A DNA stretch of 64,000 nucleotides, from positions 330,599-394,598 of the forward strand of contig JBEKTZ010000001.1 of NCBI GenBank assembly GCA_049515535.1, written 5' to 3'. Numbering within the stretch: position 1 is the first letter of the stretch; each line of letters starts with the position of its first letter. A program made the position numbers. The stretch comes from Candidatus Aminicenantales bacterium. GTDB taxonomy: Bacteria > Acidobacteriota > Aminicenantia > Aminicenantales > UBA4085. Below are positions 30,001 through 36,000 of the stretch, in pieces.

Positions 30001-33000
30001 TGCTCCCGGATGACATCCGGATCCTCGATATCCGGAGAGTCCCGTTGGATTTCCACGCCCGGAGGAACGCCAAGGGAAAGGTCTATCAATACCGGATTTG
30101 GCAGGCGCCCGAGATCACTCCGTTTATCTGCCGTTATGTCCTCCATTGGCCTTACCCGCTCGACATCAGGCTCATGCGCGACGCGGCGCGGCTTTTTCAA
30201 AGGACGGGCGATTATTCCGGATTTTCCTCCAACCGGCTTCTTCCGCCGGTCCGCAGCGTCGTGCGGTCAGAACTTCGTAAAAAAGGCGACGAACTCGTCT
30301 ATACCATCGAAGCCGGGGGGTTTCTGCGCTACATGGTCCGGACGATCGTGGGCACGATCCTTGAAGTCGGCCGGGGCAAAGTCCCCCTGGATAAGATCGA
30401 ACGCATCTTCCATGAAAAAGAGCGAACGCTGTCGAGTCCGACCGCACCGGCCAAGGGCCTTTGTCTTCTCAAGGTCATTTATTGAGGAGAAGGATTGAAC
30501 TCCATTTATTGAACGAAGCGCGGGTGACGATGAAGGTCGAGCTCCTCCGCCCGCAACGGATGAGCCCGCGCCGACATTTCTTTACGACATCAAGTTCAAT
30601 CCGAAGACAAGCGCGTCCTCATCGGGATTGAAATAATAGTTTTTTCTGACGCCGATCAGGTCGAACCCGAGTTTCGCGTAGAGGGTCTGGGCGGGCTTGT
30701 TGGACATCCGGACTTCGAGAGAGACGAACGTCACCTTCTCGCCCCGGCCGCGCTCGATGGCGTCCCGGAGTATCGACTCGCCGACCCCCAGCCGCCTGAA
30801 ATCGGGATGGACCGCGATGTTGTTGATCATGATCTCATCCTTGATCTTCCAGTAGATGATGTATCCGACGATCTTTTTCTCCGTCGCGTGCACGGCCACG
30901 AGAGGAAAGGAGATGTCGTCGTTTTGGATCTCGCCCCGGAATGTCGTTTCCCGCCAGGGGTTGGGAAACGACGATTGTTCGATGGCCAGCACCTCGGGGA
31001 GGTCTCCGTTCTCCATCCTCCGGAGAGCGAAGGGAAGGGAGGCGGCCGGTCGATGATTAATGCTTTTCCTCCGCCTGGGATTTTCGATAATAGAGCGGCT
31101 CGAGTTCGGTCGAGGAAATTCCCTTTTTGGCGGCCAGGATATCATGGCCGAGGAGGCCGACTTCATAGGCGATGAATGGCGACCGATCCGAAAATCGGGC
31201 TTTGTCTTTCAAGCGGTCCACAATTTTCTCCCGGTAAAGACCGCTCCCGTTCCCGATCATGAGAATGGCGCGCCGCGCCGGAAGAAGGGACAGAAAACGG
31301 TCGGGAGGATAGGCTCCCTGGGGGATCGCCTCCTTGAGTCTTTTCCCTCGAATTTCAAAAAGGGCCGCGTAGATTTCTCCCCTTTTCGCGTCGAGCATCG
31401 GGGCCACAAGAGAGACCGGCGCATCGCGGAGCTTCCAGGCCAGGGCCGCGAGCGAAGAGACGGGAGCGACCGGCTTTCCCGAGGCGAAGGCAAAGGATTT
31501 CACGGTGCTCAAACCGATGCGGATTCCGGTGAACGAGCCGGGACCCGGCGTGACGGCGAATCCGTCGATGTCCTGAATGCCCAGATGGAGAGATCCGAGA
31601 AGCAGATCGATCGAAGAGAGAAGCCGGGCCGAATGCGTAGACGGCGCTTCGACGGCGAATTCCGCGAGGAGGCGGCGGTCTTCGAGGACGGCCGCGGAGC
31701 CGCCCGGCGTCGTCGTGTCGACGGCGAGAATGCGCATGCTAGGATTTCACCGATCGGCCGAATTTGAACAGATTGCCGGCCTTGAAAATATTGTATTGGA
31801 CGGAACTCATCGCTTCGAGCTCCAAAGGAATCCCCTGGTTAAGGTTCTCCCCTTTCCCCGTCCGGACGTCGAGCCGGATCACGTCGCCGCTCGCGATTTT
31901 TCCCGAGGCGACCAGCGGTTCGAGCCCGCGGATCTTGAGAATCGGAAATCCGGAATTCACGGCGTTCCGGAAATAGATCGCCGAAAAGGACGGCGCGAGA
32001 ACGGCGCCGATCTTGAGAGCGACGAAACAATCGACAGCCTGCTGCCGAGACGAGCCGGCCCCGAAATTGCGGCCGGCGATCACGATGTCTCCCGCTTCGC
32101 ACCGCTTCGGAAAATCCTGCCAGCCTTCCAGATTCCCGAGGGCGAAGGGGCCCATCTGGGCGACATCGGTAATGTGAAGATGAGCGTTGTGATAGATCTG
32201 GTCGGTATCGATGTCCTCGAGGATCTTTCCATCCGTGTTGAGGAGGAGCCAAATCCGGCCCTGTTTGATGTCGCTGTCCATGTCACAAATCCTCCGGACT
32301 GATGATTTCACCGGCGATACAGGAGGCGGCCACGACGGCCGGGCCCGCCAGGAAGGTATGGCCTTTCCCCTGCTTCCCGGGAAAATTCCGGTTGCCCGTG
32401 CTGATCTGCGTTTCGCCCTTTCCGGTGAGGCCGACATGGCCTTCGGCGCATCCGCCGCAGCCGGGGTTGACGATGATCGCCCCGCTGCGGAAGAGCGTTT
32501 CGAGAATGCCGCGTCCGAGCATCTCGTCATAGACGTTCCGCGTGGCCGGGACGATTTTTAACATCACGCCCTTTTTGACGACGCGACCTTTAAGGACCTC
32601 CGCGGCCCGGGCAAAATCCTCGGTCCGGCCATTGGTGCACGAGCCGATGAAACCCGATTCGATCTTCGTGCCGCGCACTTCGCTCAAGGCTTTGACGGTA
32701 TTCGGAGAAGGCGGAACGGCGACCTGGGGCGGGAGGCCGGAAACGTCGATCTCGACGACGGCGGCATAGGCGGCCCGGCCGTCGGCGACGGCGGACGGGG
32801 CCCCGGGCTTTGCCCGGGGGTCCACTTCCGCCGCGAAGGCTCGTCCCTTGACGAAAGGCGCGAATTCCAGACCCGCGGACACTTTCATCTCGGCGGACAG
32901 GGCGGTCTCGAATTCCGGAATGAATCCAATGATCCCGGCCATTTCCGTGATCATACTGCACAACGTGATCCGGCCGGCCAGCGAGAGGCGGCGTACGGCC

Positions 33001-36000
33001 TCGCCGTAAAACTCCGCCGCGCGGAGGGCGATCCGTCTCGTCCCCAGCTCTTTGCAGAGAAACAAGGTCAGGTCTTTCGCGTCGGCCGCGGGAGACGGCC
33101 GGCCTTTGATGACGACTTTGACGGTCTCCGGCACTTCGAACCAAGTTTTTCCGGTCTTGAAAGCGAAGGCAATATCGATGTCGCCCATCCCCTGGCCGAA
33201 GCAGCCGACGGCCCCCAGGATATTCAGGTGACTGTCGGTGCCGACGACCGTCCCGTTGGGCCGGGCCAGACCTTCCTCTATCATGACATGCGTCCCGATG
33301 CCGCGGTTCACATCAAAGACCTCGAGGCCGTGTCTCCCGGCGAAATCGCGACAGGCCTGCTGGTTGTCGGCATATTTGAGGGAACACGCCGGAGCGCAAA
33401 GGTCAAAGGTGAAAAACGTTTTGTGGGCATCCGCGGGCGGCGCGTCTCCATACTCCCGTTCGTAATGGATGACGACATTGGGCCCGCCGAAGTCCCTGGC
33501 CGACCGGACGTCCAAATCCATCCAGACGATTCGGCCAGGAGCGACTTCGTCCCGGCTATGGGCCTGAATGATCTTCTCGATGATCGTTTTTCGCAAAGGA
33601 TCCCCCGCTCAGATCTTGGCGGCCACGGCCGCGGCCATGTCGAGCGTCGTGGATTTCCCGCCCATATCGTACGTCCGGACCTTGCCGTCCTTGATGACGT
33701 CGGAGACGGCGCCTTCGAGAACCCTGGCCTTGGCCGTCTCGCCCAACCACTCGAGCATCAGCATGGCGGCCAGAAACGTCGCGATCGGGTTGACTTTATA
33801 GAGCCCGGCGTACTTCGGCGCTGAGCCGTGCGTCGGCTCGAATACGCCGTACTTCTCGCCGATGTTGCCGGCCGAAGCGAACCCCAGCCCGCCGACGAGC
33901 TGGGCGGCCAGGTCGGAAATGATATCGCCGAACAAGTTTTCGGCCACGAGAACATCATAGTCGTGAGGGTTCTTGACGAGCCACATGCACATGGCGTCGA
34001 TATTCGCCTCCTTGAACTCGATATCCGGATATTGCCGGGCGACGGCTCGGGAAACGCTCAGCATCAGGCCGCCGGTCTCCCGAAGGACGTTGGGTTTCTC
34101 GACGATGGTCACCGAGCGGCGCTTGTTTTTGCGGGCGTAATCGAAGGCGGCCTTGACGATCCGTTCGCATCCTTTTTTGGTCATGATCCGCGTCGAAACG
34201 GCGATCTCGTCGAGCGGGACGTTCTTGAACGGTTTCATCTTGGCGTGGGCCATCAGCGCGTCCTTCACGGCCTGGGGAAGGGGGAAGAATTCAACGCCGG
34301 CGTACATCCCTTCGGTGTTCTCCCGGAAGATGACGAGGTCGATGTTGTCCCGGTAGTTCAGGGGATTGCCGGGATAGGCCTTGCACGGCCGGAGGTTGGT
34401 ATAGAGGTCGAATTCCTGGCGGAGGCGGACGATGGGGCTGAAGTAGGACAGGCCTTTGCCCTGGAGCGACGGCGCCAGCTCCTTCGCCGCGTCCTCTTTC
34501 GGCTTGGAGGTGATGGCCCCGAAGAAGCAGACGTCTGTTTCTTTGAGCAGCTGAACCGTCCGGTCCGGAAGCGCGTTGCCTTCCTTCGCCCAGAATTCCC
34601 AGCCGATGTCGCCGTGGATGTATTCCGCGTTGACGTCCAATTTTTTGAGGACGATCATCGCCGCTTCCATGACTTCGACGCCGACGCCGTCGCCGGGCAA
34701 AACCGCAATTCTATACTTGCGCATCAAGAACTTCTTTCTTCATGATATCATCGAAATCGCGGCCCCGGATATTTTAATACAACCCGCGGCGCCAAAGGAA
34801 TAGCGTCCTTTGGCGCCAGCCGGCTTCGGGGCGGATGGATTTCGCCTCACGCGCGCTCATTTGGCAAAAAAATGATTTTCTTCATGGTTAGAATTCCTTT
34901 ATGACCCTTCGATCTTTTTTTTCGTATATGCGAGCAGGCCGCCGGCTTCAAGGATGCCGATGACCGAATCCGGGAGAGGCGGGAATTTGAAAACCTTGCC
35001 GGCGGAGGCGATCGTCCCGCCGGCGAAATCGATCTCCACCTCATCGCCCGTCTTCATTGTCTCCGACGCCTCCTCGCACTGCAGAACGGGCAGGCCGAGG
35101 TTGATGGCGTTCCGGAAATAGATCCGGGCAAAGGACTTGGCGACGACGGCCTGGACGCCCGCCGCCCTCAGGCAGGCCGCGGCCTGCTCCCGGGAGCTCC
35201 CGCAGCCGAAATTCCTGCCCGCGACGATGACGTCCCCCGGCCGGACATTCCCGGCGAACGCCGGATCCAGGTCCTCGAACGCATGGGCGGCCATCTCCTC
35301 GGGTTTCAGCTGTTGATAGGTATATTTCCCCGCATAAATGACGTCCGTGTTGACGTCGTCTCCGTATTTCCAGACTCTTCCTTTGCTCATAGGCATGTCC
35401 TCGGATCGGTGATTTTTCCCTCGAGGGCCGACGCGGCGACAGTGGCCGGCGAGGCGAGGTAGATCTCGGAATCGCGCCCGCCCATCCGCCCCTTGAAATT
35501 GCGGTTGGACGTTCCGACGACGACTTCGCCCGGCGCGAGAAGGCCTTCGTGCGCGCCGAGGCAGGGACCGCATCCCGGATTGAGGATGACGCAATTCGCC
35601 GCGACGAAGATTTCGATCAAACCTTTTTTCAAGGCTTCCAGATAAACCTCCCGGGAGGCCGGCAGCACGAGGGCTCTGACCCGGGGATGGATTTTTTTCC
35701 CTTTGAGGATCTTGGCCGCGATTTCCAGATCTTCGAGTCTGCCGTTCGTGCACGTTCCGATCAGGGCCTGATGGAAGGGCCTGCCTACGACCGCCGATAC
35801 CGGCTTGACGTTATCGACGGAGTGAGGGCAGGCGATCTGGGGCTCGATCCGGGATAAATCGTATTTCAAAACGGCCTCGTACGTCGCGTCCGGATCGGAC
35901 TTGACGATTTCATACGCGTCCCTGGCCCGGGCCTTGAGCCAAGCGATCGTCTGGTCGTCGGGCTCGAAGTATCCATTTTTGGCGCCCATTTCGGCCGCCA

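Follow-up and report, generated by a model that had tools for sequence, protein, structure and literature searches.

The 64,000-nt stretch of Candidatus Aminicenantales DNA analyzed here (the window; its genome is called G000) carries a 63-nt short-form copy of a repeated element at 32790 to 32852 (+ strand), inside a gene of the aconitase/IPM-isomerase large-subunit family (32283 to 33596, − strand). The host gene reads the copy antisense as 21 residues, 249 to 269 (VKGRAFAAEVDPRAKPGAPSA). On the + strand, the copy is preceded by the target pentamer GCGAC (32785 to 32789; consensus, TC[G/C/A]AC), which is host DNA and is not duplicated. A putative DNA guide, GGGG (32797 to 32800, + strand), which predicts a C-C-x-C target, sits at the foot of a subterminal hairpin (32801 to 32819, + strand), and the right-end motif TTGAC occupies 32848 to 32852 (+ strand). 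The hairpin loop is one base shorter than that of the end hairpin of IS200 elements L102, L103, and L122. A second copy, of the 102-nt three-hairpin form, is intergenic at 44319 to 44420 (− strand), with target TCGAC and a fold z of −8.2.

The insert is absent from 20 of 20 aligned orthologues of the host product, as the first-pass annotation of this DNA had claimed. Fe-S cysteines 320, 380, and 383 are intact, and the insert was modelled as coil between a helix (231 to 241) and a strand (279 to 284). The earlier name, LeuC, was not supported: the product fell below the LeuC/IPMI cut-offs, and a paralogous large subunit without the insert, above the HacA/IPMI family cut-offs, lies in the same window (35387 to 36640, − strand). 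The host is an aconitase-family paralogue, for which LeuC identity and an essential role are at most putative. Two independent studies (X2 and X5) contain both junctions of this copy as well.

Nearby, tsaB (31057 to 31737, − strand; TIGR03725 above cut-off) contains an empty target, TCTAC (31637 to 31641, − strand). This site is empty in G000 but filled in a related population (run X5), where the copy lies exactly between 31636 and 31637. The extra copy shows that the element moved recently, which bears out the earlier view of a recently mobile miniature element of Aminicenantes-type bacteria.

Copy number, length, and ends of the element

The repeat core had 134 matches in G000; removal of 2 spurious matches and merging of nested ones left 123 insertion loci, so that the abundance first reported (about 131 copies) stood. 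A second census yielded 111 complete copies, of which 52 were 63 nt and 40 were 102 nt long, the rest including composites of 129, 141, and 165 nt; these values replace the 80 and 110 nt given before. The 63-, 102-, 141-, and 165-nt lengths are all multiples of three, as is each of the building blocks (63, 39, and 78 nt). Four to five of the six reading frames are open in the main forms (63, 102, and 141 nt); for the long form the number is four, as stated earlier. Three long open frames across copies (L065 to L067) had no Pfam match and were left uncounted.

Boundaries were set by nesting, where one copy had inserted at the TCCAC of another, by exact 63-, 102-, 141-, and 165-nt gaps relative to orthologues, and by the tsaB site. 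The element begins with GGCGG in 87 of 109 copies and ends with TTGAC in 89 and TTGAT in 11. These ends are not terminal inverted repeats, and at 63 to 165 nt the element contains no transposase gene.

Target site and strand bias

Insertion occurs 3′ of TC[G/C/A]AC. Among 109 copies, the 5′ flank carried T in 90, C in 100, A in 91, and C in 108, while the 3′ flank was random. The left and right flanks (4-mers) were identical in none of the 109, and no duplication was seen in nested copies, exact orthologue gaps, or the X5 site. The top strand of the element lay on the G-rich strand at 91 of 120 loci, the value for target pentamers being 0.47 to 0.49 (p = 6e-10). The replication origin was not located, and the G-rich strand is only presumed to be the lagging-strand template. 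A bias to the lagging-strand template has been reported for IS200/IS605 elements (PMC5027513).

The first-pass annotation had described a MITE with an unknown partner. In size and copy number the repeat resembles a classical MITE of the kind that DDE transposases mobilize, and the two final letters common to target and element end in 76 of 109 copies can mimic a 2-bp duplication. Nevertheless, the ends are not inverted repeats, nested copies and the X5 site show no duplication, and the strand bias is unexpected for a MITE. The MITE explanation is already refuted, with a negligible probability left to it, and the element is built like an IS200/IS605 PATE.

Hairpins, a putative guide, and resemblance to IS200 elements

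The three hairpins described earlier are present in the 102-nt form only; in the 63-nt form a single hairpin is clear, against the two used by the textbook IS200/IS605 mechanism. GGGG stood at the hairpin foot in 98 of 106 copies. This putative guide predicts both invariant target positions (1 and 4), fitting 97 of 106 copies; the C-x-x-C target was likewise found in 82 of 99 copies from other genomes. At target position 2 the guide predicts C, which is found in about 34 of 106 copies, fewer than the roughly 52 with G. No clear covariation emerged between element positions 6 and 7 and the target, and the TTGAC right end has no cleanly fitting guide. Among left ends of the order's IS200 elements, 15 of 16 obey the guide-target rule, with a chance expectation of about 0.16 each.

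These IS200-group elements (NCBIfam NF033573 above cut-off) resemble the repeat in several respects. A TTGAC end occurs in L028, L030, L101, L112, and L115, and the L028/L030 type also shares a TTGAC-like target. L102, L103, and L122 carry nearly the same hairpin pair, CCCC[A/G]GGCTTT(A)GCC[T/C]GGGG, in the order seen in the 141-nt form. They differ in that the sequence outside the hairpins is unrelated, TnpA is encoded, and guides and targets are A/T rich. The Y1 element of G000, whose flanks had been called unrelated, has the TTGAC end and hairpin class in common with the repeat but a different hairpin stem.

If a RAYT-type (TnpA-REP) tyrosine transposase had spread it instead of IS200 TnpA, the repeat would be REP/REPIN-like. 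RAYT-like Y1 genes are present in G000 and in 9 of 10 element-bearing relatives searched, and a single hairpin suffices for TnpA-REP (PMC8266576), a mode that the 63-nt form would fit. On the other hand, the hairpin foot lacks GTAG and has GGGG instead, the element ends are fixed at the pentamer target and TTGAC rather than CT, and L029, the RAYT-like gene of G000, has 27-nt inverted repeats of its own on either side and no element copy. We consider RAYT-mediated spread improbable.

Search for a cognate transposase

The ends of the element were not found beside any of 20 Y1 loci in 11 genomes or another 28 IS200 loci from the order, and none of 80 TnpA loci carried them whole. None of the 134 element loci held a transposase gene flanked by the element's own ends, and a pattern scan of metagenomes revealed no parent IS with such ends. 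An apparent 1-kb left-end/right-end span in G027 proved to be two separate copies. The sole IS200-type tnpA of G000 carries an internal TAA.

In-frame copies deep inside genes

With nested composites taken once, 17 loci lie in frame deep inside 17 genes of G000. This confirms that deep in-frame copies exist but lowers the earlier count of 22 copies in 20 genes; a "deep" copy in a MobA fusion was dropped because orthologues begin after the copy, which sits upstream of the real gene. The inserts add 21, 34, 47, or 55 residues, not 17 to 36. All 17 are multiples of three in length and stop free in the host frame, 9 being read antisense and 8 sense. Homologues show a gap at 15 of the 17 loci, including those in single-copy GluRS, BamA, iPGM, and an LptC/LptA-type protein (formerly called LptD); the other two hosts, an 858-residue protein of unknown function and a GNAT protein, could be compared with distant paralogues only. 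Identical peptides recur in GluRS, BamA, iPGM, AOR, LigA, NuoN, and others. The deep copies sit in variable loops and linkers, which supports the proposed persistence in frame at such positions. A single-sequence structure model of GluRS (pLDDT of 38) was set aside. An apparent frame preference (2, 5, 6, 0, and 0 observed versus 5.2, 1.5, 4.5, 0.4, and 1.4 expected; p = 0.024) was also set aside as confounded with residue context.

No frame-breaking copy was found in G000: 14 of 14 loci with coding-scored flanks on both sides were intact. The test had a sensitivity of 0.985 on gene interiors, but 4 of the 17 real inserts did not reach its threshold. The claim that no frame is broken thus stands for G000 but not beyond it, as two such copies occur in other genomes (L187 and L192). 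Two other PATE-like families in G000, one of which has stop codons and mixed lengths, had none of their 41 copies deep in genes, as against 17 of 123 loci here (Fisher p = 0.007).

Element copies are strongly structured (fold z, −2.6 to −8.2), as would suit removal of the inserts from RNA by splicing or by ribosome bypass of a stable hairpin, leaving the proteins normal. However, all deep copies keep length and frame in both orientations and sit in variable loops or linkers, a bias that makes sense only if the insert peptide is made. An intron core is lacking, and an Rfam scan of the whole window gave no match. Removal from RNA is very unlikely.

Assembly artefacts or dead genes might also account for in-gene copies, since G000 is a 32-contig metagenome bin whose contigs break at the repeat and whose only IS200 tnpA is itself broken. 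This reading is contradicted by the junctions of the "LeuC" site, seen independently in X2 and X5. Hosts keep their catalytic motifs and show no excess of private changes relative to G004, and GluRS, iPGM, and the LptC/LptA-type protein have no second copy in G000. We regard artefact or gene death as extremely unlikely.

Purging and possible horizontal spread

Deep genic positions hold about 78% of target sites but only 17 of the 123 loci. Relative to the intergenic rate, about 2% of the expected deep genic insertions are present, indicating that most are purged. The earlier proposal that the element colonizes proteins "without killing them" at scale is thus not supported.

The element was present in 20 of 246 genomes of the order and absent from the viral contigs and plasmids searched. 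In sequence comparisons, this patchy presence suggests horizontal spread. It also occurred in records titled Eubacteriales, Spirochaetes, or "bacterium." At five of nine Eubacteriales-titled loci, flanking proteins were 68 to 80% identical to those of G000; two were 38 to 50% identical and two had no match. The other two such genomes had one match each. Because flanking proteins resemble G000 proteins and the other genomes have one match each, we do not claim cross-phylum transfer.

Comparison with known systems

As described in the consulted parts of the reports on Haloquadratum walsbyi PATEs (Dyall-Smith 2011, PMC3119063) and the PATE-like ISGst (Meers 2023, PMC10055086), those elements are likewise noncoding, without terminal inverted repeats or target duplication. 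They share near-terminal palindromes, a target of 4 to 5 nt on the 5′ side, nested copies, very short forms left by core deletion (52 nt versus 63 nt here), and a host tnpA that is often a pseudogene. The present element differs in sequence family, main lengths that are multiples of three, a relaxed target, and a parent IS that was not found. Here, in-frame copies inside genes make up 14% of loci, a feature that those parts of the two reports do not describe.

Rickettsia RPE (Ogata 2000, 2002, as reviewed in PMC10969869) are palindromic repeats also read in frame in unrelated conserved genes as recurring peptides. They are about 105 to 150 nt long, belong to a reduced intracellular genome where nearly half of them are genic, and have no known mobilizer; the likeness noted here is one of location. 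A free-living, GC-rich case had been thought new, but the consulted part of Di Nocera 2013 (PMC3733652) already gives about 70 intragenic palindromes for Opitutus terrae. There, GC-rich GTAG/CGTC REP hairpins lie in frame in DNA ligase, UvrA, tRNA synthetases, and other proteins, and a Y1-type mobilizer is proposed. Those REPs are 20- to 40-nt units tagged GTAG/CGTC and tied to RAYT, whereas the ends here are fixed and of IS200 type, and the inserts are 21 to 55 residues long. The open-licence literature searched described neither this family nor in-frame IS200/IS605 PATEs. The repeat is a new family of a known kind of element and not a new class.

A model for movement and its consequences

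Taken as a whole, the repeat is very probably a non-autonomous IS200/IS605 derivative (PATE) that would be moved in trans by TnpA, is frame neutral, and is mostly purged from genes. An IS200-type HUH/Y1 transposase (TnpA) would bind the element hairpin where the replication fork exposes single-stranded DNA, peel the element out, and paste it 3′ of TC[G/C/A]AC without duplication, the target being chosen by pairing with GGGG at the hairpin foot. Genic hits keep frame because insertion adds exactly the element, whose main forms are 63, 102, or 141 nt with four to five frames open. Most such hits would be purged; survivors in variable surface loops and linkers would be translated as 21 to 55 extra Gly/Ala/Pro-rich residues and could become fixed. 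Of this model, the boundaries, target, lack of duplication, strand bias, polymorphism, and in-frame survival were observed; the enzyme, its chemistry, translation of the inserts, and their neutrality are inferred.

Frame neutrality may even be an adaptation rather than luck, although we hold this only tentatively and think it doubtful: blocks in multiples of three, pasted scarlessly in IS200 fashion, would make essential genes a refuge, let the element outgrow stop-bearing PATE families of the same genome, and render loop insertions reversible. If so, IS200/IS605 peel-and-paste would be a general source of protein-coding palindromes, whose spread has been an open question from the Rickettsia reports onward, and 63 nt of DNA with a single hairpin would be a complete TnpA substrate.

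With this element, a protein-coding palindrome acquires a mechanism that is concrete and can be tested (target, guide, strand, and candidate enzymes), something the Rickettsia elements lack. Its peptides create false homology between unrelated proteins of the order. The natural series of identical peptides marks insertion-tolerant loops, and the fraction of genic insertions retained provides a measure of tolerance for such inserts.

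Extent and insertion mode of the element

The element lies in the window at 32790-32852 (+), inside an aconitase-family gene (32283-33596), and at 44319-44420 (-). When window positions 32740-32880 were searched against the source genome (G000), matches were 95 to 136 deep over 32788-32852, with next to none outside. The 48-nt core had 134 matches; removal of one reverse self-match and one weak match and merging of nested matches left 123 loci, and a second census counted 111 complete loci. These figures bear out the first-pass annotation's repeat of about 131 copies. The 80- and 110-nt lengths given there take in flanks; the main forms are 63 nt (52/111) and 102 nt (40/111), and the rest include 75-, 129-, 141- and 165-nt composites. 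Length was a multiple of three (3n) in 102 of 111 complete loci. With 0 to 2 differences from the reference in 40/54 copies, the near-identical 63-nt forms point to young copies.

The element starts with GGCGG and ends with TTGAC. Among 109 copies, the 5′ flank read T (90), C (100), G/C/A (106), A (91), C (108), while the 3′ flank was random; neither terminal inverted repeats nor a target duplication was present. Three independent lines fix these ends. First, nesting in the TCCAC of another copy yields 63 + 102 = 165 nt. Second, the insert in the window gene was absent from 20/20 orthologues, with a clean 21-residue gap in 14 and a longer deletion in six. Exact 21-codon gaps were also found for GluRS (5/5), AOR (5/5), an LptC/A protein, GT2, and M28, and longer exact gaps for iPGM (34 codons), an HD protein (47), and a NUDIX protein (55). 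Thus, the earlier statement that orthologues lack the insert holds for both the window gene and GluRS. Third, in run X5, from a population ~97% identical, contigs depart from the window sequence at 31634-31636, continuing in the right end of the element, and rejoin it at 31637 out of the left end, with the strain's depth of 46; these contigs were placed at 85% likeness with a 30-letter side on the joint, and none spans the copy. G000 has an empty TCTAC at this point, inside tsaB. Related populations also break or differ in letters at window 30486-30567 and 40628-40715, which are possibly further polymorphic repeats.

Relationship to IS200/IS605 elements

The marks of IS200/IS605 transposition, as described in PMC10055086 and PMC5027513, are a 5′ target that stays outside the element, a motif nearly identical to it within the right end, hairpins in subterminal position, and insertion without scars; gene-less derivatives with the same marks are termed PATEs (PMC3119063). 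All four marks were found in the studied element. Its 63-nt form equals the 141-nt form minus the core between the hairpins, comparable to the 52-nt terminal-only PATEs of Haloquadratum (PMC3119063). Besides the IS200 type resident in G000 (below), the order contains another IS200 group, whose end hairpins are arranged like the two of the 141-nt form but are one loop base longer.

G000 carries an IS200 element (L028; C9:107898-108512) with target and right end TTGAC and a tnpA broken by TAA. It was apparently inserted into another open frame, and an ends-only palindrome of it lies at C13:38162-38193. An intact copy, 94% identical, is present in G014, the relative richest in the studied element (165 right-end matches).

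The guide-target pairing scheme applied here predicted the target for 15/16 IS200 left ends. For the studied element, the guide position is GGGG in 98/106 copies, predicting C-C-x-C, and C-x-x-C was found in 97/106; at target position 2, G was commoner than the predicted C. The principle of guided target choice is stated in PMC8266576. The top strand lay on the locally G-rich strand in 91/120 loci, versus 0.47-0.49 for target pentamers (P = 6e-10). The guide rule did not account for the TTGAC right end, and no tnpA flanked by the element's own ends was found around transposase and element loci or in metagenomes; both points weaken full membership in IS200/IS605. An IS200/IS605-type mechanism is likely, and an IS200-type TnpA would be the candidate enzyme.

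Across the order, one IS200 family (L101, L109, L112-L121, L126, and L127) carries at least 8 different guide/target pairs on one hairpin, a natural retargeting series. G000 also has a RAYT-like Y1 gene of 341 aa (L029:1358-2426, on C13), with perfect inverted repeats of 27 nt on its two sides.

Copies inside genes

Genes were called with our own codon model (2,617 genes), and copies at least 30 codons from both gene ends were termed deep. Of 18 deep loci, one was dropped. In-frame deep copies thus exist as previously claimed, in 17 rather than 22 instances. The hosts are the window aconitase-family subunit, a methyltransferase, a PIN protein, BamA, a phosphodiesterase, iPGM, an 858-aa protein of unknown function, GNAT, a histidine kinase, a heptosyltransferase, NUDIX, GluRS, AOR, an HD protein, an M28 peptidase, GT2, and an LptC/LptA-type protein. 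For 15/17, the insert was seen as a gap in homologues. All deep copies are 3n and stop-free; 11/99 other complete loci are non-3n.

Target pentamers predicted 94/120 deep loci, against 17-18 observed, and ~745 deep insertions would be expected at the intergenic rate. Either ~2% of genic insertions survive or insertion avoids genes, which does not fit the proposed large-scale colonization of proteins without killing.

Two further PATE-like families occur in G000. One (24 copies, e.g., C1:306, C3:80473, and C13:83564; about 180-215 nt, 179-180 nt in 3 measured copies) has a TTGAC-like target, end TTGAC, and a left hairpin nearly that of the resident IS200; its copy at C1:55482 nests in a hairpin of the studied element. 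The other (17 copies, e.g., C1:294829 and C5:214962; 105-108 nt) is stop-rich and entirely intergenic, with target and end TTGAT/TTTAT. Together they had 0 deep copies versus 17 for the studied element (P = 0.007), although their A/T-richer targets also fall less often in genes (0.48-0.67 versus 0.77-0.81).

No second copy of GluRS, iPGM, or the LptC/A protein was found in G000 (94% complete), and BamA had only one, 21% identical. GluRS scored over its family cutoff and retains motifs of the HIGH and KMSKS types; its insert falls at a short variable stretch of solved GluRS sequences. The BamA insert comes after the predicted signal region. In iPGM (L053:504-2447, on C2), the halves are in swapped order, as in five relatives, and the insert lies in the linker of that permutation. 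Private substitutions in hosts showed no excess versus G004, a relative; versus G014, 3/6 hosts did show one (iPGM, 55 against 26), possibly an effect of kinship to the outgroup. The heptosyltransferase loop is occupied in G000, in the relative G008, and, separately, in G014. At C2:344879, C5:210983, C5:224400, C7:210525, and C10:87709, copies fall within the final 3-26 codons of gene calls and may have extended the C termini. At C12:61870-62080 and C12:65587-65760, which are 3.7 kb apart, a copy stands immediately ahead of a duplicated tRNA-Arg(TCG)-like 3′ half; the arrangement resembles attachment-site remnants.

The window protein model (pLDDT 82; TM 0.86 to MJ0499) places residues 249-269 in coil, with low confidence there, as expected without homologue coverage. 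Both junctions of the copy were found again in X2 and X5, from two independent studies, with no 63-nt skip among the 15 of 55 joints listed. Because the protein scores below family cutoffs and has an adjoining paralogue, its earlier designation as an essential LeuC is not established. Besides two aconitase-family large/small pairs, the operon at 31739-38021 encodes an HD protein and an isocitrate-type dehydrogenase and includes a citrate-synthase-like/lyase gene; it is not a plain leucine operon.

Distribution in relatives and relation to known palindromes

The right-end 18-mer was found in 20/246 genomes of the order (8/26 others in family f1, 9/87 in f4, and 0/96 in f6); most titles of element-holding records name Aminicenantes. 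Among 96 parsed copies in relatives, 12/61 3n copies were in frame in genes, including those for LigA, NuoN, an AddA-like helicase, and NagA; the G000 orthologues of LigA, NuoN, and AddA are empty. At L244:240-340 (G027, of another family, f4), a 102-nt copy apparently lies inside a gene, in an antisense open frame. Only 63/99 copies in relatives were 3n, a 101-nt variant was common, and a reading frame is interrupted by two of the non-3n copies; therefore, frame neutrality is no law, and the claim that no frame is broken is borne out for G000, where no such case turned up, but not for relatives.

In-frame palindromes are known from Rickettsia, as RPEs (reviewed in PMC10969869), and a second review (PMC3184786) covers small repeats that are fused in frame. 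A free-living, GC-rich case is likewise in print: PMC3733652 has ~70 rows of intragenic palindromes of Opitutus terrae, with DNA ligase and UvrA among the host genes. No mention of PATEs was found in passages of PMC6006769. The open-licence literature that was searched yielded no account of this family or of IS200/IS605 PATEs lying in frame; one may exist in subscription papers or supplements. The in-frame phenomenon is thus already known. What is new is the family itself: the element appears to be a well-defined PATE family whose 3n length would let a small share of its copies live inside proteins.
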